From Clostridia bacterium (GTDB lineage Bacteria > Bacillota > Clostridia > Oscillospirales > CAG-272): a stretch of 64,000 nt of DNA. The position numbers were made by a program, and so were the translations under genes. Under the pieces are notes generated by a model. The model had not been told where the DNA came from. It ran no database searches and saw only the letters and a list, made by a program, of their open reading frames with translations. The stretch lies in the NCBI GenBank assembly GCA_017412045.1, contig JAFQOX010000017.1, positions 6,183 to 70,182 of the forward strand, in the 5' to 3' direction. Every line of letters begins with the position of its first letter. The first letter of the stretch is position 1. This document shows positions 15,582 through 61,497 of the stretch, piece by piece.

Positions 15582-17321
15582 ATGACGAAACGAATTCCCA
15601 AAATATCGCTCCGTGCGATGTCGCTTGCCAAGCAATGCGGAATCAGCAGTAAAGATTTGTATTTAATTACGCCGACAGGCGCTGACGGCAGAATCACCGA
15701 AGAGGACGTTTTGCTCGCAGCCAAGGCGAAAATGGATATGGCTTCCGTGGCAGCGCAAAAGCCCGCAGCGGAAAAAGCACCCGTTGCGGAAGAAGTACCT
15801 GTAACGGAAAAAGCGCCCGTTGCAGAAAAAGCACCCGTTGCGGAAGAAGTACCTGTAACGGAAAAAGCGCCCGTTGCAGAAAAAGCACCCGTTGCGGAAG
15901 AAGCGCCCGTGGCGAAAGAAGCGCCCGTGGCAGAAAAAGCACCCGTAGCGGGAGAAGCGCCCGTTGCGGAAGAAGCACCCGTTGCAGAAAAAGCGCCCGT
16001 TGCGGAAGAAGCGCCCGTTGCGGAAGAAGCGCCCGTTGCAGAAAACGCACCCGTAACGGAAGAAGCGCCCGTAGCGGAAGAAGCGTCCGCAGCAGAAGAA
16101 GCGCCCGTAACGGAAGAAGCACCCGTTGCGGAAGAAGTACCCGTTGCAGAAGAAGCGCCCGTAACGGAAGAAGCACCCGTTGCGGAAGAAGTACCCGTTG
16201 CAGAAGAAGCGCCCGTTGCAGAAGAAGCGCCCGTTGCGGAAGAAGTGCCCGTAACGAAAGAAGCGCCCGTTGCGGAAGAAGCGCCCGTTACGGAAGAAGC
16301 ACCCGTAACGGAAGAAGCACCCGTTGCGGAAGAAGTACCCGTTGCAGAAGAAGCACCCGTTGCAGAAGAAGCGCCCGTAGCGGAAGAAGCACCCGTAGCG
16401 GAAGAAGCACCTGTGGCAGAAGAAACTCCCGTAGCGGAAGAAGCCCCCGTGACGGAAGAAGCACCTGTGACAGAAGAAACTCCCGTGGAAGCGCCGGACA
16501 GCGTTGCCATTGAAAAAATCGAGACGGAAAAACAGGAACAAACCGCAATCATTGCCAAACCCGTGATGAACGAAGAAACGATCGGCGATCAGAGCGCAGA
16601 AGGAGAGATCCCGAAGCATGAGACGGTTCATTCCTTTGATTCGGAGGCATACCTTCATACGGACGTCATCATTCCGAGAACGGAAACCGCGCCGGACGGA
16701 ACGCCGATGACGGTCAGTATGTCCTTCGATGCTTCTTCTATCGTGAGATTACATACGATGATCAAGGAGAACGGCGAAGCGATGGGAATTCCTCACGTTA
16801 CGATCAACGATATGATTCTCTTTGCGGCGGCAAAGCTTCTGAAGAAAAACAAAGCGCTGAACGCGCATTTTCTCGGAGACAAGATCCGTTATTTCGACGG
16901 CGTGCATCTCGGATTCGCCGTAGATACCGATCACGGTATGGAGCTTCCCGTGGTATTCGATGCGGATAAGCTTTCCCTCTACGCGCTCACGCAGGTTACG
17001 GATGCTTTGATCAGAGGCGCAAGAGCGGGCAAAATCGCTTCCGGCAAAACGAAGCCCTGCGCTTCCTTCACGGTATCCAATCTCGGCACGCTCGGCGTGG
17101 AATATTTCATGCCGACGCTGAAGGCACCGCAGACCGGAATCCTCGGCGTTTGCGCGTTGCAGAAGAGAGTGAAGGAGGTTGGCGGAAAGGACGTATTCTA
17201 CTCCTGCATCCCGCTCTCCCTGACCTTCGATCCCCGCGCGCTGGATACCACGAGCGCCGCGAAATTCCTGCGCGATCTTTGCGTATCGCTGGAAAATTTT
17301 GAATTGTTGCTGTTGAAATAA
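15582..17321 (+). CDS. 2-oxoacid dehydrogenase E2 (dihydrolipoamide acyltransferase)-like protein with no lipoyl domain, a long Pro/Ala/Glu repeat linker and a degenerate catalytic motif
   Basis: N-terminal E3/E1-binding-like segment ([29 protein letters not shown]), ~240 aa of [AV]PV[AT]E[EK] repeats, and a C-terminal catalytic-domain pattern ([39 protein letters not shown]). Confidence 0.75.
15760..16490 (+). repeat. About 40 tandem copies of an 18-bp coding repeat (GAAGAAGCNCCCGTTGCG-like, hexapeptide APVAEE) with 54-bp higher-order units
   Basis: Read directly. For example, the 54-mer gaagaagtacctgtaacggaaaaagcgcccgttgcagaaaaagcacccgttgcg occurs twice back to back near 15788-15895. Confidence 0.9.
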
Positions 17322-20677: not shown

Positions 20678-20708
20678 CCCCTGTTCCGCAAGGAACGGGG
20701 GCGTTTTG
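20678..20708 (+). terminator. Rho-independent terminator after the serpin gene
   Basis: CCCCTGTTCC-gcaa-GGAACGGGGG followed by CGTTTTG. Confidence 0.65.
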
Positions 20709-20758
20709 CGTCTAAATGATTGTTTACGGTTCTTTAAGCAAGTGATACCAAAAGGCTC

Positions 20759-20861
20759 GCCCTTTGGGAGAGCTCCGCCGTAGGCGGTGAGAGGGCGTAA
20801 ACTTGCTCAAAAAGCCCTCTCCGTCAGGCTAACGCCTGCCACCTCTCCCGGAGTGAGAGGC
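20759..20861. repeat. Pair of GC-rich REP-like palindromic units in convergent orientation
   Basis: GGGAGAGCT-CCGCC-gta-GGCGG-TGAGAGGGC, and on the opposite strand GGGAGAGGTGG-CAGGC-gtta-GCCTG-ACGGAGAGGGC. Related units occur at 46998-47122. Confidence 0.5.
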
Positions 20862-20939
20862 TTGGGGTTAGACTCGTAAATTTCCGTTTATCGGATCAAA
20901 AAGAAAACGCGGTCGCCCTGAAAAAAGACGTAATTTCCC

Positions 20940-20968
20940 TTGACAAATACCCCTTGGGGGTATATAAT
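20940..20968 (+). promoter_or_regulatory. csoR-copA promoter with an embedded CsoR-type operator
   Basis: TTGACA (20940) -17 nt- TATAAT (20963). The spacer contains the palindrome ATACCCC-TT-GGGGGTAT, the G/C-tract inverted repeat typical of CsoR boxes. Confidence 0.7.
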
Positions 20969-20991: not shown

Positions 20992-21291
20992 ATGGATAAG
21001 CAATGCTGTTCTCACAAAACGAAAGCCCGTACGGACGACGAATATAAAAAGCTGATTCACCGTCTGAACCGTATCGAGGGACAGATCCGCGGAATCCGCG
21101 GTATGGTGGAAAACGATGCGTACTGTACGGATATTCTGATCCAGGTCAGCGCGGTCAACGCCGCTCTGAACGCGTTCAATAAGGAATTGTTGGCAAATCA
21201 TATCCGCACCTGCGTGACGGACGATATCCGGAACGGGAAGGACGAGGTCGTGGACGAATTGGTCAACACCCTGCAAAAATTGATGAAATGA
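20992..21291 (+). CDS. csoR: CsoR/RcnR-family metal-sensing transcriptional repressor
   Basis: LIHRLNRIEGQIRGIRGMVENDAYCTDILIQVSAVNAALNAF is the classic DUF156 pattern with the Cys/His ligand set. It lies directly upstream of copA. Confidence 0.9.
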   Translation: MDKQCCSHKTKARTDDEYKKLIHRLNRIEGQIRGIRGMVENDAYCTDILIQVSAVNAALNAFNKELLANHIRTCVTDDIRNGKDEVVDELVNTLQKLMK

Positions 21292-21308: not shown

Positions 21309-23807
21309 ATGGAACGGTATAACGTGACGGGTATGAGCTGCGCGGCTTGCAGCGCCCGTGTGGAAAAGGCGGTCTCTGCCGTGGAAGGCGTGAAAAGCTG
21401 CTCCGTCAATCTGCTGACGAACTCCATGGCGGTGGAAGGGACGGCGGCGAAGGAAGCCATTGTCGCGGCGGTGGAAGCCGCAGGCTACGGCGCATCGCCA
21501 AAAACGGAATCCGCAGAACAAGCGCCCGCGTCGAAAAGAGAGGAATTGCGCGACGTGCAAACACCTCTGATGAAAAAGCGATTGATTGCGTCGCTCGGCT
21601 TTCTGGCGCTTCTGATGTATATTTCGATGGGACACGTGATGTGGGGCTTTCCCCTGCCCGCGGTTCTCGCGGAAAATCCGCTTGCCATCGGACTTCTGGA
21701 GCTTTTGCTCTGCGCGATCGTGATGGTGATCAATCAGAAATTCTTTATCAACGGCACAAAGGGCGTTTTGCACGGCGCGCCGAATATGGATACGCTCGTG
21801 GCGTTGGGCTCGGGCGCATCGTTCGTATACAGCGTGTACGTCGTTTTTGCGATGACGGCGGCGCAGATGGACGGAGATCCTTCGGCTGTCATGCACGGCT
21901 TGCATGATCTGTATTTTGAATCGGCGGCAATGATCCTGACGCTGATCACCGTCGGCAAAATGCTGGAGGCGAGAGCCAAGGGCAAAACGACGGATGCACT
22001 CGCAGGTCTGATGGCGCTTGCGCCCAAGACGGCAACGGTCTTGCGCGACGGAGAAGAAACGGTCGTTGCGATCGAAGCCGTAAAAAAGGGTGATATTTTC
22101 ATCGTTCGCCCCGGCGAGCATATTCCCGTGGACGGCATCGTCGTCGAGGGCGGAAGCGCCGTGAACGAATCGGCGCTGACGGGAGAAAGCATTCCCGTCG
22201 ATAAGGCGGTCGGTGATTCCGTTTCTTCGGGAACGACCAACGAATCGGGATTTCTCAAATGCGAGGCGACAAGAGTCGGTGAAGATACCGCGCTGGCACA
22301 GATCGTCCGCATGGTCAGCGACGCGGCGGCAACGAAAGCGCCGATCGCAAAGATCGCAGATAAGGTTTCGGGTGTTTTCGTTCCCGTCGTCATCTCCATT
22401 GCGGCGATCGCCTTCGCGATTTGGATGATCGCGGGAGGATCCGTCGGTTTTGCGCTTTCGATGGGCATTTCCGTGCTCGTTATCAGCTGTCCCTGCGCGC
22501 TCGGTCTGGCAACGCCCGTGGCGATCATGGTCGGAACGGGAAAGGGCGCGAAAAACGGCATTCTTTTCAAAACGGCGACGGCGCTGGAGGAAACGGGCAA
22601 GGTGAAAACCGTCGTTCTCGATAAAACGGGAACGGTGACGAGCGGCGCGCCCAAGGTCGTTTCCGTGCTTCCCGCGTCGGGCGTTTCGGAGGAGACGCTT
22701 CTTTCTCTTGCCTATACGCTGGAGAAAAACAGCGAGCACCCGCTGGCAAGAGCGATCCGCGAACGCGCGGAGGATCTCGGCATGAAGGCAGGGGCGGTTT
22801 CGGATTTTACCGTATTTCCGGGAAACGGTCTTTCCGCAACATACGGAAGCGATACGCTTTTCGGCGGAAATCTCGCCTTCATTGCATCCCGAGCGTCTGT
22901 GACGGAGGATATGCAAGCGCAGGCAAGCGCGCTTGCCGATGAAGGAAAAACGCCGCTTTTCTTTGCAAAAAACGGCAGTATGCTCGGCATCGTCGCCGTT
23001 GCGGACGTGATCCGTGAGGACAGCCCCGCGGCGATCCGCGAACTGCGAGAGATGGGCATCCGCGTCGTTATGCTGACGGGGGACAACGAGCGCACTGCCG
23101 CCGCGATCGCAAGAGAGGTCGGCGCGGACGAGGTCATCGCGGGCGTACTCCCCGACGGCAAGGAAGAGGTGATCCGCAAGCTTTGCGAGCAGGGCAAGGT
23201 CGCCATGGTCGGCGACGGTATCAACGATGCCCCCGCTCTGACGCGCGCGGATATCGGCATCGCCATCGGCGCGGGCACGGATATCGCCATTGATGCGGCA
23301 GACGTCGTGCTGATGAACAGCAGACTTTCCGACGTTCCCGCCGCGATCCGTCTCAGCAGAGCGACGCTGAGAAATATTCATCAGAATCTTTTCTGGGCGT
23401 TCTTCTATAACGCGGTCGGCATTCCGCTGGCGGCGGGCGCGTGGTATCCGCTGTGGCAAATCAAGCTCAGCCCCATGTTCGGCGCGGCGGCGATGAGTCT
23501 TTCCAGCTTCTGTGTGGTCAGCAACGCGCTGCGGCTCAATCTCACGAAGATCCGCAGTACGAAACATAAAAACAAACAACAAACGGAGGAAACCAAAATG
23601 GAAAAAACGATGAAAATCAAAGGTATGATGTGCAAGCATTGCGAAGCGAGAGTTAAAAACTGTCTCGAAGCGTTGCCCGAAGTCAGCGAAGCCGTCGTCA
23701 GCCACAAAAAGGGCACGGCAAAGCTCACGCTCACCGCGGAAATCGCAAACGAAACGCTCAAAAAGACCGTTGAGGATCAGGGCTATCCCGTCATTGACAT
23801 CAAATAA
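21309..23807 (+). CDS. copA: Copper-translocating P1B-type ATPase with an N-terminal and an additional C-terminal heavy-metal-associated domain
   Basis: N-terminal GMSCAACSARVE, TGES, CPCALGLATP, DKTGTVT, GDGINDAP. The last 69 aa form a second HMA domain (KIKGMMCKHCEARV). Confidence 0.92.
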   Translation: MERYNVTGMSCAACSARVEKAVSAVEGVKSCSVNLLTNSMAVEGTAAKEAIVAAVEAAGYGASPKTESAEQAPASKREELRDVQTPLMKKRLIASLGFLALLMYISMGHVMWGFPLPAVLAENPLAIGLLELLLCAIVMVINQKFFINGTKGVLHGAPNMDTLVALGSGASFVYSVYVVFAMTAAQMDGDPSAVMHGLHDLYFESAAMILTLITVGKMLEARAKGKTTDALAGLMALAPKTATVLRDGEETVVAIEAVKKGDIFIVRPGEHIPVDGIVVEGGSAVNESALTGESIPVDKAVGDSVSSGTTNESGFLKCEATRVGEDTALAQIVRMVSDAAATKAPIAKIADKVSGVFVPVVISIAAIAFAIWMIAGGSVGFALSMGISVLVISCPCALGLATPVAIMVGTGKGAKNGILFKTATALEETGKVKTVVLDKTGTVTSGAPKVVSVLPASGVSEETLLSLAYTLEKNSEHPLARAIRERAEDLGMKAGAVSDFTVFPGNGLSATYGSDTLFGGNLAFIASRASVTEDMQAQASALADEGKTPLFFAKNGSMLGIVAVADVIREDSPAAIRELREMGIRVVMLTGDNERTAAAIAREVGADEVIAGVLPDGKEEVIRKLCEQGKVAMVGDGINDAPALTRADIGIAIGAGTDIAIDAADVVLMNSRLSDVPAAIRLSRATLRNIHQNLFWAFFYNAVGIPLAAGAWYPLWQIKLSPMFGAAAMSLSSFCVVSNALRLNLTKIRSTKHKNKQQTEETKMEKTMKIKGMMCKHCEARVKNCLEALPEVSEAVVSHKKGTAKLTLTAEIANETLKKTVEDQGYPVIDIK

Positions 23808-50178: not shown

Positions 50179-50257
50179 AAAAAGTAAATGCTGAGACCGG
50201 AGAGTTAACCGAGGCAACAGGAAATTTCTTGACAAAAGAAATTTCCCGTGATATAAT
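50179..50257 (+). promoter_or_regulatory. 15-mer AAAAAGTAAATGCTG, then a consensus promoter TTGACA-17-TATAAT whose -35 sits inside a perfect 11-bp inverted repeat
   Basis: Motif 50179-50193. GGAAATTTCTT-gacaa-AAGAAATTTCC at 50220-50246. -35 at 50229, -10 at 50252. Confidence 0.6.
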
Positions 50258-50291: not shown

Positions 50292-50945
50292 ATGTCGAAA
50301 TTTTTGAAATGGCTTGATAATTATTGGTACCATTATAAATGGCACACGATCATCGTTTCCTTTTTTCTGCTCATCGGTACCATTTCGATGGTTCAGATCT
50401 TCAACAGAGAAACGTATGATGCCTACGTGATGTACGTGGGAGATGCGGTAATTCCCGATACGCAATATTACGATATCATGCAGTCGCTCAAAGAGGTTTC
50501 CTCAGATTACGACGAAAACAAGGAGCATAATATCAATTTTTCGAAAACCGCGTTTATTACCGATCCCGAAAACAAGATGGCTTCCAGCATCAACGCTTCG
50601 GCGATCCAATATCTCTCCAATCTCGTCGTCCAACCGTATTATATCTATCTGATGGACGAAGAGGTTTATAAGCTCTATAAGGATAGCGATATTTTCGTCC
50701 CGATCTCCGAGATCGTTTCCGATCTGCCTGCCGATTGGTATTACGACGACACAGCGGTCTACTTTGACAGAACGGATTACGCGAACAGCTTCCCGGGCGT
50801 GGATAATCTCGGCGAAAACACCCTGCTCGTGATCAAGATCATGCCGTATTCCTCCTCCAAACGCGTAATGGAACGGGAGCGCGGTTATTACGACGACCAT
50901 CTGGATATGTTGAAAAATATTCTTTCCTACAGAAAGAACGGATAA
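50292..50945 (+). CDS. N-terminally membrane-anchored protein, unknown function
   Basis: One TM (WHTIIVSFFLLIGTISMVQIF) and then an acidic, Tyr-rich ectodomain. Confidence 0.5.
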   Translation: MSKFLKWLDNYWYHYKWHTIIVSFFLLIGTISMVQIFNRETYDAYVMYVGDAVIPDTQYYDIMQSLKEVSSDYDENKEHNINFSKTAFITDPENKMASSINASAIQYLSNLVVQPYYIYLMDEEVYKLYKDSDIFVPISEIVSDLPADWYYDDTAVYFDRTDYANSFPGVDNLGENTLLVIKIMPYSSSKRVMERERGYYDDHLDMLKNILSYRKNG

Positions 50946-51753: not shown

Positions 51754-51782
51754 TTGACATTTCAAAAGTAATGTGATATTAT
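51754..51782 (+). promoter_or_regulatory. Promoter of the tRNA cluster (TTGACA-17-TATTAT with TG extension)
   Basis: ctaTTGACAtttcaaaagtaatgtgaTATTATat, about 35 nt upstream of the first tRNA. Confidence 0.6.
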
Positions 51783-51815: not shown

Positions 51816-51889
51816 GCGGGTGTAGTTCAATGGTAGAACTCCAGCCTTCCAAGCTGGTCGCGTGGGTTCGATTCCCATCATCCGCTCCA
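51816..51889 (+). tRNA. tRNA-Gly (anticodon UCC), CCA encoded
   Basis: Acceptor GCGGGTG/CATCCGC, anticodon arm CCAGC-CTTCCAA-GCTGG, T arm GTGGGTTCGATTCCCAT. Confidence 0.9.
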
Positions 51890-51966
51890 GTGCCTTTAGC
51901 TCAGCAGGATAGAGCAACTGCCTTCTAAGCAGTAGGTCGAGGGTTCGAATCCCCCAAGGCACGCCA
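51890..51966 (+). tRNA. tRNA-Arg (anticodon UCU), CCA encoded
   Basis: Acceptor GTGCCTT/AAGGCAC, anticodon arm ACTGC-CTTCTAA-GCAGT, T loop GGTTCGAATCC. Confidence 0.9.
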
Positions 51967-51971
51967 GTTAT

Positions 51972-52049
51972 GGTGGATATGGCTCAGTTGGTTAGAGCGC
52001 CAGGTTGTGGCCCTGGAGGCCGTCGGTTCGAATCCGATTATCCACCCCA
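51972..52049 (+). tRNA. tRNA-His (anticodon GUG) with encoded G-1, CCA encoded
   Basis: G-1 plus GTGGATA/TATCCAC-C, anticodon arm CCAGG-TTGTGGC-CCTGG, T loop GGTTCGAATCC. Confidence 0.9.
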
Positions 52050-52087: not shown

Positions 52088-52148
52088 TTTATATCCGTGA
52101 ATCTATTTCAAAAAACAGAATAATTCGATAAAAAATCTTATTAAAATA

Positions 52149-52275
52149 AAAAAGCGGGCAACGCCCGCTGGAAAACTGCTTGCTCTGCAAGCTGTGTGCT
52201 CGCCTACCGCAGTTTAGCCTGTATTCAAACAATACAAAACGGCGAGGTCGAATTTGCGCAATTTCCTATGGTATA
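52149..52275 (-). repeat. Structured ~125-nt intergenic repeat, copy A (reverse orientation), ending in a terminator-like hairpin GCGGGCAACGCCCGC
   Basis: The reverse complement aligns with copy B (53216-53347). The hairpin-proximal ~45 nt are identical and the remainder is roughly 85 percent identical by eye. Confidence 0.75.
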
Positions 52276-52346
52276 AAAAAGTAAATGCTGTCGATCTATC
52301 AATTTACCGCACGGGTCTTGACGAAACGTTTTTTCGAGGCTATAAT
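52276..52346 (+). promoter_or_regulatory. 15-mer AAAAAGTAAATGCTG followed by the promoter TTGACG-17-TATAAT of the PHP gene
   Basis: Motif 52276-52290, -35 at 52318, -10 at 52341. Confidence 0.6.
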
Positions 52347-52444: not shown

Positions 52445-53146
52445 ATGACCATGGTAAAAAAAGATTTTTATTGCTATGAAACGCATTTACATACCTCCCC
52501 CGTCAGCAAATGCGCCCACGCGACGGTCAGGGAAACGCTGGAAGCTTACGCGCGATTGGGTTATGACGGTGTTTTTATCACCAATCATTTTTTAGGGGGC
52601 AATATTCTGCGCGATCCGTCCTGGTCCTACGAGGAAACGGTGCACTTCTATTTTTCGGATTACGAAGAAGGCGTCCGCATCGGTAAAAGCTTGGGGCTCG
52701 CGGTTTTTTGCGGCATTGAATTGTCTTATCACGGAACGGATTTTCTGGTTTACGGGCTCGGAAAAGATTGGTATCTGGCGCACCCCGAGATCGAATCCAT
52801 GAAAATTTCCTCGTTGCTCACGTTTCTTGCGGAGGCAGGCGCGCTGATCATTCACGCCCATCCCTTCCGTGAGGCGTCGTATATCGACCATATCCGACTG
52901 TTCCCCCGTCATATTCACGGAATCGAGACTTATAACGCTTGCCGTACTCCCTTTGAAAACGGCATGGCGGAAATGTACGCGCAATATTACGGTATGCCCA
53001 CGTTTTCGGGATCCGATAATCATAACGCCGGTATGCAGAAGAAATTCGGCGGTATGCAATCGGATACGCCGCTCCGCGACGAGGCGGATTTCATCGGACG
53101 CTACAGAAGGGGCGAATTGCGTTTGATCCGCATGGAGCTTGCATAA
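52445..53146 (+). CDS. PHP-domain metal-dependent phosphoesterase (histidinol-phosphatase-like)
   Basis: YETHLHTSPVSKCA, GVFITNHF and IIHAHPFRE His/Asp motifs. AAAGGAAGG RBS favours ATG 52445 over the track start 52430. Confidence 0.75.
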   Translation: MTMVKKDFYCYETHLHTSPVSKCAHATVRETLEAYARLGYDGVFITNHFLGGNILRDPSWSYEETVHFYFSDYEEGVRIGKSLGLAVFCGIELSYHGTDFLVYGLGKDWYLAHPEIESMKISSLLTFLAEAGALIIHAHPFREASYIDHIRLFPRHIHGIETYNACRTPFENGMAEMYAQYYGMPTFSGSDNHNAGMQKKFGGMQSDTPLRDEADFIGRYRRGELRLIRMELA

Positions 53147-53174: not shown

Positions 53175-53221
53175 AAGAGTAAGAATGAAAGGGTTTCCGC
53201 CCTTGATTCTTACTCTTTTTT
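53175..53221 (+). terminator. Bidirectional-looking terminator after the PHP gene
   Basis: AAGAGTAAGAAT...ATTCTTACTCTT flanked by A and T runs. Confidence 0.65.
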
Positions 53222-53347
53222 ATCGCATAGGAAATTGCGCAAATAGAACCTCGCCGTTTATATCGTTTGGATACAGTCTTAACTGCGATAGGCGAGCACA
53301 CAGCTTGCAGAGCAAGCAGTTTTCCAGCGGGCGTTGCCCGCTTTTTT
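53216..53347 (+). repeat. Structured ~125-nt intergenic repeat, copy B
   Basis: TTATCGCATAGGAAATTGCGCAAATAGAACCTCGCCGTTTATATCGTTTGGATACAGTCTTAACTGCGATAGGCGAGCA..., then GCTTGC-aga-GCAAGC, then GCGGGCGTTGCCCGC followed by TTTTTT. Confidence 0.75.
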
Positions 53348-57035: not shown

Positions 57036-57232
57036 CTGTGAAGATTCCTTTCTCATTTTTTCGTATCGAAAGATCGTTTCCTTGAAAACTTCTGCTTGTA
57101 TTATATCACAATCCGTTTTATTTGTAAAGATAAACGGAAATTTACGCAACAGACAGAGCTTTTTTATTTTAATATGATTTTTTATCAAATATGAAAAAGA
57201 TAAGATTTTTCATATTCAGAAAATCTTAAAGC

Positions 57233-57303
57233 AAAAAGTAAATGCTGTTGCCCCGGACGAAAAAATTGCTTTGCTTGACAAAAGGCGGATTTTGTGTTAT
57301 ATT
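57233..57303 (+). promoter_or_regulatory. 15-mer AAAAAGTAAATGCTG followed by the promoter TTGACA-17-TATATT of the LRR surface protein gene
   Basis: Motif 57233-57247, -35 at 57275, -10 at 57298. Confidence 0.6.
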
Positions 57304-57326: not shown

Positions 57327-59222
57327 GTGGAGGATAGAATGAATTCAAATATATACAGTCACAAACGGAAAAAGCTTTTTCTGATCGGGGGAATCTCTTT
57401 GGCGGCGCTGATCGTCATATTGGCGCTTGCTTTTTTTCTGATGGGTAAATGCAGGCACAAGGAAGCGGTCGTTGAGGCAGTTGCGCCCACCTGCACGCAG
57501 GAGGGCAGAACGGAGTGGAAATATTGCGCGCTCTGCGAGGAGATTCTCGTTCCTGCCGAAATCATTCCCGCGCTTGGTCATACACCCAACGGAGAGATCA
57601 CCTGCGCAGGACCGCAAACGTGCGCCATTTGTCATACGGAGCTTGCGCCCGCGCTCAGCCATACGCCGGGACCGCCTGCCGACTGTAAGTCGGGACAGTT
57701 TTGTCTGGTCTGCAAGGAGGAGCTTGCGCCCGTGAGCCACGTTCCCGGATCTCCTGCCACCTGTACGGAGGCGCAAACCTGCGCTTTGTGCGGCTTTATT
57801 CTGAATCCTGCGGGACATCGGGCAGAGCCTGCCACCTGTACGGCCGGAAGCTACTGTACCTTGTGCTACGAGGAGCTTTCCGAGCCGTTGGGACATGAGC
57901 CCGGCGATCCGCCCACCTGTACGAAGGGGCAGTCCTGCAACCGTTGCGGACTGGAGCTGGCACCCGATAACGGACATACGCCGGACGGTGACGTCAGCTG
58001 TACGAAGGATTCCGTTTGTCTGACGTGCGAGGAGGTGCTGGAAAAGGCAACGGGGCATAAGATGAGCGCGTTTATCTCCTGCACGGAGGCGCAATACTGC
58101 CTGACTTGCTACGAAACCTTGGTTTTTGCGACGGAGCACACGCCCGGACCGCCCGCTACCTGCACGGAGGGGCAGGGGTGTCTTGCTTGCAATACGGAAT
58201 TGGAGAAGCCTCTCGGACACAGCATTCAGAAATGGACGGTCGAAAAAGAACCCTCTCTCGGCGTGGCGGGAAGCCGATACGGTGTTTGCTCCCGCTGTGA
58301 AGAAACCGTGCGCGAGGAGATCGAGGCGCTGTATTCCGAAGGGCTGGATTACTTGCTGAAGGATGACGGTACGTATGCCGTCGTCGGCGCGGGCGCTTGT
58401 ATGGACGAGTGGATCGTTCTGCCTGCCGTTTACGAAGAAATTCCCGTCACCTCAATCGCAGACAACGCCTTCTATAATTGCCCGACACTGAGAAAGCTAT
58501 CCGTTCCCGTCGGTGTGACGGATATTGGCAACCGTGCTTTTTATCTTTGTCAAAATCTGGAGACCGTTTCTTTGCCGACAGGCTTGAGAAGGATCGGAGA
58601 GTCCGCTTTTTACGGCTGCGCCGAGCTGAAGTCCGTGGACGTACCGCTTGGCGTGACAGCGATCGGAAATCAAGCGTTTTCGGGCTGCGGAAAGCTGGAG
58701 AGCGTTTCGCTTCCGTACGGACTCGTGAGTATGGGAAACGCGGTTTTTGCAAACTGTGTCAGTCTGACGGGCATTGACATTCCGCAGGGTGTGACCGTGA
58801 TTGGCGAACGGACTTTCTACTATTGCGTGAAGCTGAGCAAAGCCGTTCTGCCCGACAGCGTGAAGGAGATCGGCGCGCAGGCATTTTATTTTTGTAACGA
58901 TTTGCAAGCAATCACCCTTCCCGTCGCGTTGCAGACCGTCGGAGCATTCGCTTTTTACCGTTGCACCGCTCTGACGGCGCTCGCGCTTCCCGAAGCCGTA
59001 ACGGAGGTCGGCGATTGCGCATTTGCGCTTTGCATCGGTCTTGAAAGCGTTTCTCTTCCCGAAACGCTCGTCGGGATCGGCGAGCGGGCGTTTGCAGACT
59101 GTCGGAGTCTGAAGGAGATTTCCTTCGGCGGTACCGAAGCGCAATGGGAAGAGGTTCTGCTCGGCGAGGAATGGCGCGTGGGCGTTCCCGCGGAAAGGAT
59201 TGTTTGTTCCGATAAAGAATAA
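57327..59222 (+). CDS. Membrane-anchored surface protein: about nine Cys-rich ~33-aa repeats followed by BspA-type leucine-rich repeats
   Basis: TM LFLIGGISLAALIVILALAFFLM. Repeats have the form C-T-x2-Q-x-C-x2-C-x3-L-x-P-x2-GH-x-PG-x-P (e.g. ATCTEAQTCALCGFILNPAGH). The LRR part reads IGNRAFYLCQNLETVSLPTGLRRIGESAFYGCAELKSVDVP... The start may be ATG 57339. Confidence 0.75.
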   Translation: MEDRMNSNIYSHKRKKLFLIGGISLAALIVILALAFFLMGKCRHKEAVVEAVAPTCTQEGRTEWKYCALCEEILVPAEIIPALGHTPNGEITCAGPQTCAICHTELAPALSHTPGPPADCKSGQFCLVCKEELAPVSHVPGSPATCTEAQTCALCGFILNPAGHRAEPATCTAGSYCTLCYEELSEPLGHEPGDPPTCTKGQSCNRCGLELAPDNGHTPDGDVSCTKDSVCLTCEEVLEKATGHKMSAFISCTEAQYCLTCYETLVFATEHTPGPPATCTEGQGCLACNTELEKPLGHSIQKWTVEKEPSLGVAGSRYGVCSRCEETVREEIEALYSEGLDYLLKDDGTYAVVGAGACMDEWIVLPAVYEEIPVTSIADNAFYNCPTLRKLSVPVGVTDIGNRAFYLCQNLETVSLPTGLRRIGESAFYGCAELKSVDVPLGVTAIGNQAFSGCGKLESVSLPYGLVSMGNAVFANCVSLTGIDIPQGVTVIGERTFYYCVKLSKAVLPDSVKEIGAQAFYFCNDLQAITLPVALQTVGAFAFYRCTALTALALPEAVTEVGDCAFALCIGLESVSLPETLVGIGERAFADCRSLKEISFGGTEAQWEEVLLGEEWRVGVPAERIVCSDKE

Positions 59223-60066: not shown

Positions 60067-60101
60067 AACCGCCCCTGTCAGACGTGACAGGGGCGGTTTC
60101 T
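60067..60101 (+). terminator. Rho-independent terminator
   Basis: AACCGCCCCTGTCA-gacg-TGACAGGGGCGGTT followed by TCTT. Confidence 0.75.
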
Positions 60102-60207
60102 TATCGCATAGGAAATTGCGCAAATAGAACCTCGCCGTTTATATCGTTTGGATACAGTCTTAACTGCGATAGGCGAGCAACCTCCGGCGGGCGTTGCCCG
60201 CTTTCTT
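60100..60207 (+). repeat. Structured intergenic repeat, copy C (short form)
   Basis: The first ~79 nt are identical to copy B by eye. It lacks the internal GCTTGC-aga-GCAAGC hairpin and ends with the same GCGGGCGTTGCCCGC hairpin. Confidence 0.75.
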
Positions 60208-60209
60208 GA

Positions 60210-61394
60210 TCATACGTTTTTGGGTTTATCCTTTAAAAAGAAAAGACAGCAAAGCAAAATGACGGGGAAAATGACGGCACAAAGAATACCGTGCCGGAGG
60301 TTTCCGCCGAAAAGAGCTGCCATCCATCCTGCGACGGTCGGGCCGGAGGAGCATCCGAGGTCACCCGAAAGCGCAAGGAGCGCGAACATCGTCGTTCCGC
60401 CGAATTTGACGCTCTCCGTAGCAAGGGAGAACGTACCGGGCCAGAAAATACCGACGGAGAAGCCGCAGAGGATGCAGCCGATCAACGCCAATACGGGATA
60501 GGGAGAAAGACCAATGATCAGATAACTGACGATGCAGAGCACGGAGCAAGCCATCGTCGCGTATTTCATGGGGATCTTTTCGCTGAATCTGGCGTAAAGC
60601 ACGCGGGCGATGCCCATCGTGACGGCGAATCCGCAAGCGCCGAGAAGGTCGCCCGTCGTTTTGTCTACGGCAAGCGCGCTTTCCGCGAAGGAGGAAGCCC
60701 ACTGCGCGACGGCAAGCTCGGAAGCGCCCGAGCAGACCATCATGATCAGCATGAGCCAGAATATTTTCTGCGAGAACAGCTTTTTATAGTTGGGCGCATC
60801 GTTTTCTTCCTCCCCGATCGGATAGAGTGGGACGACGGAGAAGAAAAAGACGTTTAAAAAGGGAACGAGCGCAAACAGACAGGCGAGCAAACGCCAACGC
60901 TCGATTCCGACGAAAACGAAAAACGCCGTGCTGAGCAGAATGGTAGCCACGACGCCCCAGCAATAAAAGGAGTGCAGAAGGCTCATGATGCCCGCCTTAT
61001 TTTTGGAGGGACAGGACTCGACGATCGGGCTGACGAGAACCTCCAGCAGTCCGCCGCCGACCGCGTAGATCATCGTGGAGATCAAAAGTCCCGCGAAGCT
61101 GTTGATCACGTCGGGCAGAACCGCCATGCAGACCAGACCGAGCGCGCAACAGATATGCGCGAGCAGGATCGCCCTCCGATAGCCGATCTTCTGAACGTAT
61201 TCGGAAGCCAGCAGATCCGTCAGCAGCTGCGTAACGAAATTGATCGTAATGAGCAGTGTGATCTGCTCCAGGGGGATCTCGTACGTTTCACTGAACGTCA
61301 AGAAGAGGAGCGGAGCAAAATTGACGATGATCGCTTGCGAGATATAGCCGATGAAGCAAGCGAAAATCGTATGTTTATGGGTAAGCTTTTTCAT
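60210..61394 (-). CDS. MFS transporter
   Basis: About 12 hydrophobic spans. MKKLTHKHTIFACFIGYISQAIIVNFAPLLFLTF N-terminus. The track ORF extends to 61460. Confidence 0.8.
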   Translation of the reverse strand: MKKLTHKHTIFACFIGYISQAIIVNFAPLLFLTFSETYEIPLEQITLLITINFVTQLLTDLLASEYVQKIGYRRAILLAHICCALGLVCMAVLPDVINSFAGLLISTMIYAVGGGLLEVLVSPIVESCPSKNKAGIMSLLHSFYCWGVVATILLSTAFFVFVGIERWRLLACLFALVPFLNVFFFSVVPLYPIGEEENDAPNYKKLFSQKIFWLMLIMMVCSGASELAVAQWASSFAESALAVDKTTGDLLGACGFAVTMGIARVLYARFSEKIPMKYATMACSVLCIVSYLIIGLSPYPVLALIGCILCGFSVGIFWPGTFSLATESVKFGGTTMFALLALSGDLGCSSGPTVAGWMAALFGGNLRHGILCAVIFPVILLCCLFFLKDKPKNV

Positions 61395-61427: not shown

Positions 61428-61497
61428 TTTATACCATAAACGAGAGAAAAAGTCAAGCATTTAACTGAGAATTCTTTGGCAATCGCATTTACTGTTT
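61428..61497 (-). promoter_or_regulatory. Promoter of the MFS gene (CTTGAC-18-TATAAA) preceded by a degenerate copy of the GTAAATGC motif
   Basis: The minus strand reads AAACAGTAAATGCGATTGCC, then ~25 nt, then CTTGACT. Compare AAAAAGTAAATGCTGTTGCC at 57233. Confidence 0.45.

Follow-up and report, generated by a model that had tools for sequence, protein, structure and literature searches.

Orphan ISAs1-family transposon ends at a near-fixed distance upstream of promoters in a Clostridia genome

A short sequence which recurs upstream of promoters in a 64,000-nucleotide stretch of DNA from a Clostridia bacterium (contig JAFQOX010000017.1, of metagenomic origin, ENA ERZ28653896, scaffold_224; this whole stretch is referred to below as the window) is the inner part of the terminal inverted repeat (IR) of an insertion sequence of the ISAs1 family. 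The explanation that best accounts for its distribution, and which we consider very likely to be correct, is that the copies in the window are orphan ISAs1 ends that lie upstream of pre-existing promoters as a result of integration at a fixed position. The presence of orphan ISAs1-family ends is the ordinary part of this finding, the unusual part being their placement upstream of promoters, which is sharp to 1 bp and is observed across many hosts.

The repeat and the element to which it belongs

The 15-mer AAAAAGTAAATGCTG occurs in three exact copies on the plus strand of the window, at 50179-50193, 52276-52290 and 57233-57247, precisely where the first-pass annotation had located it, and no further exact copy is present in the window. 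It is among the very few non-tandem 15-mers found three times in the window, and the view that its recurrence cannot be due to chance was upheld, as 15 matches with at most 3 mismatches were found in the 64-kb window against 1.94 expected, a number reached in none of 100 shuffles. The list of repeated k-mers of the window is itself dominated by a coding tandem repeat at 15770-16460 (18-nt period, 54-nt units), which is located inside the ORF 15582-17321. The 15-mer represents the inner two-thirds of a 23-bp IR, AAAAAGTAAATGCTGTTGCC(C/G)TG, which when read from its tip is CAGGGCAACAGCATTTACTTTTT (20-23 bp). Searching the window with the full 23-mer at up to 7 mismatches returned 9 matches as compared to approximately 1.6 expected per shuffled window, and the top five of these, all promoter-adjacent (5/5), are listed in Table 1 together with the promoters that they precede. 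The fifth copy, absent from the earlier annotation, came from this search with the full 23-mer. The degenerate minus-strand copy which had been reported ahead of the MFS gene is indeed present, its distance to the -35 being 26 nt from the 15-mer and not the 25 nt originally given.

Table 1. Solo copies of the repeat in the window and the promoters located next to them
Feature	Coordinates	Strand	Match	Sequence detail	Downstream gene
Solo repeat copy 1	50179..50201	+	18/23	inner 15 nt exact, outer 8 nt AGACCGGA diverged	
Solo repeat copy 2	52276..52298	+	19/23	inner 15 nt exact, outer 8 nt TCGATCTA	
Solo repeat copy 3	57233..57255	+	22/23	AAAAAGTAAATGCTGTTGCCCCG	
Solo repeat copy 4	61475..61497	-	17/23	degenerate AAACAGTAAATGCGATTGCCAAA	
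Solo repeat copy 5	20898..20920	+	19/23	AAAAAGAAAACGCGGTCGCCCTG	
Promoter beside copy 1	50229..50257	+	12/12 consensus	TTGACA-17-TATAAT, TG extension	217-aa membrane-anchored protein gene (50292-50945)
Promoter beside copy 2	52318..52346	+	11/12	TTGACG-17-TATAAT	PHP phosphoesterase gene (52445-53146)
Promoter beside copy 3	57275..57303	+	11/12	TTGACA-17-TATATT	Cys-repeat/BspA-type LRR protein gene (57339-59222)
Promoter beside copy 4	61428..61456	-		TTGACT-17-TATAAA, TG extension	MFS transporter gene (60210-61394, -)
Promoter beside copy 5	20940..20968	+		TTGACA-17-TATAAT	csoR (20992-21291) and copper P-type ATPase gene copA (21309-23807)

The five copies are of different apparent ages, copy 3 being the youngest-looking among them. 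The mismatches of copies 1 and 2 are confined to the outer 8 nt of the IR, an arrangement for which a combinatorial estimate under uniform decay gives P = 0.0017 and P = 0.008, respectively, and which hints at something non-neutral; it could reflect selection against transposition-competent tips, repair following nicking by a transposase, or selection on a putative binding site in the inner part. Other short sequences were observed close to the copies. At 50213-50220, 19 nt downstream of the 15-mer of copy 1, the sequence GGCAACAG is the reverse complement of the outer part of the IR, CTGTTGCC. An exact 18-mer, CGTAAATTTCCGTTTATC, occurs twice in the window (0.11 expected at up to 3 mismatches), at 20875-20892 (+), where it ends 5 nt ahead of copy 5, and at 57129-57146 (-), where it abuts the -35 (TTTACA) of the promoter of a gene for a 799-aa glycoside hydrolase. 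A GC-rich and highly self-complementary stretch of approximately 200 nt (20690-20892) lies between the terminator of a serpin gene and copy 5, and this stretch resembles the interiors of miniature elements with ISAs1 ends (L040, L061 and L144) in style but not in sequence.

The element that owns the repeat was identified from related loci in public data. A scan of genome contigs with the 15-mer, with one genome per species, listed mostly chance matches, from which the genuine ones were told apart by a common 8-nt extension. Among the matches listed, those from Clostridia, Oscillospiraceae, Ruminococcus and one Synergistaceae assembly extend to AAAAAGTAAATGCTGTTGCC(C/G)TG or to a one-base variant thereof, and many of these, again among those listed, are located 36-220 nt from a contig end, which is a signature of a multi-copy repeat. 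An inverted partner IR is present 10 nt away at one locus, where the pair forms a terminator-like hairpin (L036), and approximately 170 nt away at another (L061), and at two loci (L010 and L119) the inner flank of the repeat encodes the N-terminus of a protein. Scanning metagenomes with a 20-mer added at least 120 loci, and a viral scan 8 more. At several loci two inverted IR copies approximately 1.14 kb apart surround a single ORF of 366-371 aa; the ORF of L133 matches the ISAs1 family transposase model NF033564 of NCBIfam with 366 bits (cut-off 70) and contains the Pfam domains DDE_Tnp_1_assoc (PF13808) and DDE_Tnp_1 (PF01609), while tblastn established that a transposase of this type adjoins the repeat in more than 30 loci. 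The full element has a length of about 1.18 kb (1163-1247 bp), and perfect 10-bp target duplications were found at L133 (CCTTACAGGC), L176 (CTTTACAGCC), L204 (GCAAAAGAAG) and L253, as well as around a 329-bp miniature inverted-repeat element (MITE) in L201. A coherent family of MITEs of 205-330 nt has the same ends as the 1.18-kb element. At the right end of the element the 15-mer supplies AAA AAG TAA, that is, the last two lysine codons and the stop codon of the transposase (...FFPKK*), and at the left end its complement provides TTTACT, the predicted -35 of the transposase promoter, which is followed after 17-18 nt by a putative -10, TAAAAT/TATAAT.

Members of the ISAs1 family have IRs of approximately 14-22 bp starting with CAGGG, generate target duplications of 8-10 bp and are 1.2-1.5 kb in length. 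The elements that own the repeat agree with this family in transposase model, IR, duplication and length, and the repeat belongs to an ISAs1-family insertion sequence and its miniature derivatives, which are frequently encountered in Clostridia of the gut and rumen and in Synergistaceae. The smallest elements observed, of 52 nt (L036, 7743-7794, and L209), comprise just two IRs approximately 10 nt apart, and form, immediately downstream of a gene, a hairpin of about 20 bp that leads into a T run, indicating that this transposon family also supplies terminator-like structures.

Within the 64-kb window no transposase homologue was detected (best tblastn E = 0.39), none of the five copies has an inverted partner IR with up to 7 mismatches on its inner side, and neither element sequence nor transposase remnants nor MITE interiors were found beside them, the similarity ending exactly at the IR boundary. 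The five copies are thus orphan, or solo, ends. The solo form is present in all strain variants (L001-L009), and no filled allele of the window loci, with either a full element or a MITE, was found. That these exact sites may once have been occupied draws indirect support from the ylxM-ffh series described below, with its empty, full-element and MITE states, and from the remnant known for IS1548 (PMC5005324).

A second repeat, designated R (134-152 nt), is present in the window at 52121-52272 (+), 53215-53347 (-) and 60097-60207 (-), and also at the start of L264, where tandem R-like copies occur. R contains the subterminal palindromes GCGGGCAACGCCCGC and AAATTGCGCAATTT and lacks terminal inverted repeats. 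Every copy adjoins the A/T run of a hairpin resembling a terminator, and two R copies in inverted orientation bracket the PHP gene. The copy at 52121 is missing from strain variant L003, and its junction, in which R stands between ...cagaATAA and ATAAaaaagtaaatg, indicates that the inner boundary of IR copy 2 was its insertion point. R was rejected as a part of the 15-mer motif, as its other copies are without the motif, and in L003 the motif is present but R is not. Its appearance is that of an independent small mobile element, which may be a miniature element of the IS200/IS605 type. Rfam searches of the window and 13 related loci returned tRNAs and a T-box only, and neither the motif nor R was matched.

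Placement of the repeat relative to promoters

The first-pass annotation had described the three exact 15-mers as lying 27-35 nt upstream of near-consensus promoters with 17-nt spacers, and both these distances (35 nt for copy 1, and 27 nt for each of copies 2 and 3) and the three hexamer pairs that it named were confirmed (12/12, 11/12 and 11/12 matches to consensus). When the distance is instead taken from the tip of the repeat to the start of the -35 it is 19 nt for copies 2, 3 and 5 and 18 nt for copy 4, whereas for copy 1 the -35 starts 27 nt past the notional tip as compared to the usual 19 nt. The orientation of the repeat relative to the promoter is the same at all five copies, and the genes downstream have unrelated functions, namely copper efflux, PHP phosphoesterase, LRR surface protein and MFS transporter.

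Several further features of promoters in the window were observed. A perfect inverted repeat, consisting of GGAAATTTC (50220-50228) and GAAATTTCC (50238-50246), flanks the -35 TTGACA of the copy 1 promoter and is a possible candidate operator. The spacer of the csoR-copA promoter (20947-20963) is a palindrome, ATACCCCTTGGGGGTAT, whose likeness to a CsoR-type operator suggests that copper efflux may be autoregulated. Three tRNA genes (51816-52046) are located behind a TTGACA-17-TATTAT promoter (51754-51782) without an IR copy upstream, and the promoter of the glycoside hydrolase gene (57128-57100, -), which is also strong, is without a clear IR copy, the match in register being at most 13/23.

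The relationship between repeat and promoter was quantified on 122 independent repeat/flank junctions taken from public data, among the matches listed, with orthologous flanks clustered. Under a strict definition of a promoter (TTGACA-16/18-TATAAT, reading away from the element), 24 of the 122 unique outer flanks among the matches listed contain one; the -35 is offset from the tip by 18 nt in 8 of these flanks and by 19 nt in 16, and any other offset was observed at most once. A relaxed score places the -35 at offsets 17-19 in 36 of the 122 junctions among the matches listed, and at exactly 19 in 27 of them, where a chance background of 1.8e-4 per offset leads to an expectation of approximately 0.07 cases. 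The fixed position and orientation relative to promoters, which had been noticed on the window alone, are thus real and are found across the whole family of elements with this repeat. A good -35 is present at offsets 17-19 in 30 junctions, 29 of which also have a good -10 (a perfect TATAAT in 18 of these). Recognition of TTGACA alone was considered as a cause of the spacing and appears unlikely, as nearly all of the -35 matches are accompanied by a good -10 and represent whole promoters, the comparison not being a clean one owing to the purging of insertions inside genes.

The spacing rule is common to full elements, MITEs and solo ends, the promoter-adjacent share being 2/21 for ends of full elements, 9/20 for partial or contig-cut elements, 5/17 for MITEs and 11/27 for solo ends. 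In approximately 70% of the junctions among the matches listed there is no promoter at offsets 17-19, which makes targeting a strong but not an absolute preference, and survivorship, through the purging of in-gene insertions, could inflate the promoter-adjacent share. No conserved sequence was found across loci in the 18-19 nt between tip and -35, and comparison of this segment, the promoter spacer and the leader between loci revealed no similarity, the consensus hexamers being all that they have in common. For full elements, a bias towards the left end (IRL) beside promoters was not detected (9/25 against 2/12; Fisher p = 0.28), this test being confounded by the 20-mer query, which favours the left end. 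For a distant ISAs1 member, carried in approximately 10 copies of 1266 bp (TIR CAGGACAAACGCATGAAAAA, 10-bp duplications; L267-L270) on the Bacillus mycoides plasmid NZ_CP132067.1, a Cry-toxin plasmid densely populated by IS6, IS66 and Tn3 elements, none of 18 junctions has a strong promoter at offsets 17-19. Weak hints were observed on this plasmid at offset 19, in the form of TTGACA without a -10 in one flank and TTTGTA-17-TATAAT in another, and the result suggests that the spacing rule may be specific to the clade of the repeat-owning elements.

Comparison of filled and empty sites bears on the order in which promoter and repeat arrived. In Cloacibacillus-like Synergistaceae, the ylxM-ffh promoter of L176 is preceded by a full element whose duplication, GGCTGTAAAG, is followed by 9 nt and then by TTGACA-17-TATCAT, and the site is uninterrupted (...GGCTGTAAAGttattttacTTGACA...) in L271, the YlxM protein of which is 98% identical to that of L176. 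In L273 and L274 (YlxM 86%) the orthologous 10 bp are occupied by a 304-nt MITE with the duplication (G)CCTGTAAAG, and in L272 (YlxM 89%) the site is empty. The series shows that the same 10 bp, located 9 bp upstream of an existing -35, were the target of transposition on two independent occasions. At the PHP gene the promoter (CTTGACGAA...TATAAT) is retained among relatives at 73-83% protein identity, whether or not the repeat is there. The repeat is absent from L258 and L266 and is present as decayed in-register remnants in L260 (14/23), L262 (16/23, shifted by 1) and L257 (11/23). Conservation in relatives, which the earlier annotation had proposed as a check of its motif, turned out at the PHP gene to be a property of the promoter and not of the IR. 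At L265, which encodes a 75% orthologue of the 799-aa glycoside hydrolase whose gene adjoins copy 3, the orthologous intergenic region contains a 22/23 repeat copy 18 nt from the glycoside hydrolase gene's own divergent promoter, facing in the opposite direction to copy 3 of the window.

The resulting geometry, in standard numbering, puts the 10-bp duplication at roughly -54 to -45 and the IR at roughly -77 to -55. As the IR tip is separated from the -35 by the target duplication, the element does not include the promoter. The junction statistics and the filled and empty sites together show that the promoters were there first and that the element integrates at approximately -54 to -45.

Interpretation and alternative explanations

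An element of the ISAs1 family thus integrates upstream of pre-existing sigma-A-type promoters with its tip 18-19 bp from the -35, and the inner 15-mer would be the transposase-binding part of the IR, by analogy with other DDE transposons. The absence of a common local sequence, combined with the fact that the partner is a complete and usually very strong promoter, points most simply to the promoter complex as the landmark, and the landmark would then be the promoter itself, in the simplest case as bound by the RNA polymerase holoenzyme or through DNA bending at its upstream edge. Solo ends would have arisen when the remainder of the element was subsequently lost, for which the IS1548 remnant upstream of scl1 (PMC5005324) is a documented precedent, and they may now be mostly inert scars. 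A more far-reaching version of this proposal, which we put forward only tentatively, is that this ISAs1 clade and its MITEs use the promoter (RNA polymerase/sigma-A or the distortion of the DNA) as a landmark and cut at -54/-45 regardless of sequence, so that over time hundreds of promoters would each acquire the same transposase-binding site at -77 to -55, and these sites could be co-opted as a regulatory network.

An exapted role for the copies in the window appears unlikely, though several observations would be compatible with it. A protein would in that case bind the inner 15-mer (-77 to -63) and modulate the promoter, the five genes constituting a transposon-seeded regulon, and the binder could be an ISAs1 transposase encoded elsewhere in the genome, a domesticated derivative of such a transposase, or a host factor. 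The perfect inner 15 nt of copies 1 and 2, with mismatches in the outer 8 nt only, would be expected of such a site, as would the invariant orientation to the promoter, the higher promoter-adjacent share of solo ends (11/27) as compared to full-element ends (2/21), and a position like that of a class I activator site as known from CRP-type activation. Tip-only mutations, however, fit selection against transposition-competent ends equally well, and copy 5 holds three of its four mismatches to the repeat in the inner 15 nt. Furthermore, the IR is absent or freely decaying at orthologous PHP promoters, the downstream functions are unrelated, the 64-kb window is without a transposase gene, and fresh insertions with intact duplications already display the geometry, so that selection is not needed to explain the spacing.

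The first-pass annotation had suggested an activator or UP-like site as one possibility. On this reading the motif would be an ancestral cis-regulatory element of the host to which the insertion sequence is merely similar, and this we regard as highly improbable. Three exact copies at a fixed distance to consensus promoters and the A-rich stretch with which the motif starts are in its favour, but 20-23 nt are identical to both ends of transposase-bearing, duplication-flanked elements in many unrelated hosts, including Synergistaceae, the motif is missing at orthologous promoters and at empty sites, and the 15-mer has neither dyad nor direct-repeat substructure. The UP-element region extends from -59 to -38, and the repeat, at -77 to -55 and ahead of genes of unrelated function, is located upstream of it. 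Class I activator sites and UP elements resemble the copies in being located upstream of the -35, on one face and at a fixed distance, and differ from them in that the repeat is a transposon end which is not kept at orthologous promoters. Known operators and alternative-sigma consensus sequences (Spo0A, CodY, cre, sigma-54, ECF and WalR-type repeats) were compared with the 15-mer by eye, and none fits. The suggestion of a mobile promoter cassette, in which motif and promoter travel as one unit, was correct as to the origin of the motif in mobile DNA and accommodates the occurrence of motif and near-consensus promoter at a fixed spacing in many genomes, but can be set aside almost entirely, as the target duplication between the IR tip and the -35 leaves the promoter outside the element, empty sites already have the promoter (the filled/empty pairs L176/L271 and L273/L272), and the tip-to--35 segment, spacer and leader are dissimilar between loci.

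Comparison with known systems and implications

The closest known systems among those compared are insertion sequences of the ISAs1 family, and especially IS1548 of streptococci, an element which, according to HMM searches, has a transposase of the same family as the repeat-owning elements, likewise a single DDE transposase of approximately 370 aa, and which shares with them terminal inverted repeats starting with CAGG and 10-bp target duplications. For IS1548, locations 9 bp ahead of the putative lmb promoter (PMC2875397) and in the promoter region of scl1 have been reported, the former distance being equal to the gap between duplication and -35 described here, with the reservation that the way of counting may differ. 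In one strain a 34-bp remnant, comprising the IR and a further 14 bp, is located upstream of scl1 (PMC5005324), and IS1548 also inserts inside genes (PMC5548910). As distinct from IS1548, the window contains orphan ends only and no element, the hosts of the repeat are gut and rumen Clostridia and Synergistaceae, and the repeat-owning elements show, in 30% of independent junctions among the matches listed, a sharply defined spacing of 18-19 bp from tip to -35. This spacing rule was not found in the literature searched, a body of work that does not include the IS1548 target-site study (FEMS Microbiol Lett 2013;340:65), and a literature search for promoter-targeted insertion sequences likewise gave nothing.

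The existence of MITE relatives with the same ends as the window copies is a point of likeness to other short repeats of bacterial genomes. Correia elements of Neisseria and the RUP and BOX elements of pneumococci are short, transposon-derived intergenic repeats which sometimes affect the expression of neighbouring genes. The window copies differ from these in being single and not paired ends, in having no promoter of their own aimed at a gene, and in a position relative to host promoters that is fixed to within 1 bp. Among eukaryotic retrotransposons, Ty3 and Ty1 integrate upstream of Pol III genes and Tf1 at Pol II promoters, in each case with known tethering factors. The resemblance to these elements is that integration takes place a short and constant distance ahead of a transcription unit regardless of the local sequence, which implies a bound complex as ruler, whereas the element described here is a DDE insertion sequence of bacteria, with an inferred tether.

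For the annotation of genomes, the apparent regulatory motif of uncultured gut and rumen Clostridia is a transposon scar and not the signal of a regulon, and the same 20-23-mer will turn up in many assemblies, often at contig ends. If the proposed integration mechanism is true, a bacterial DDE insertion sequence with landmark-guided integration that does not depend on a local motif would represent a rare prokaryotic case, and it would explain how such an element multiplies in compact genomes without killing genes. An identical, putatively protein-binding sequence beside many strong promoters would at the same time constitute raw material for regulatory rewiring.
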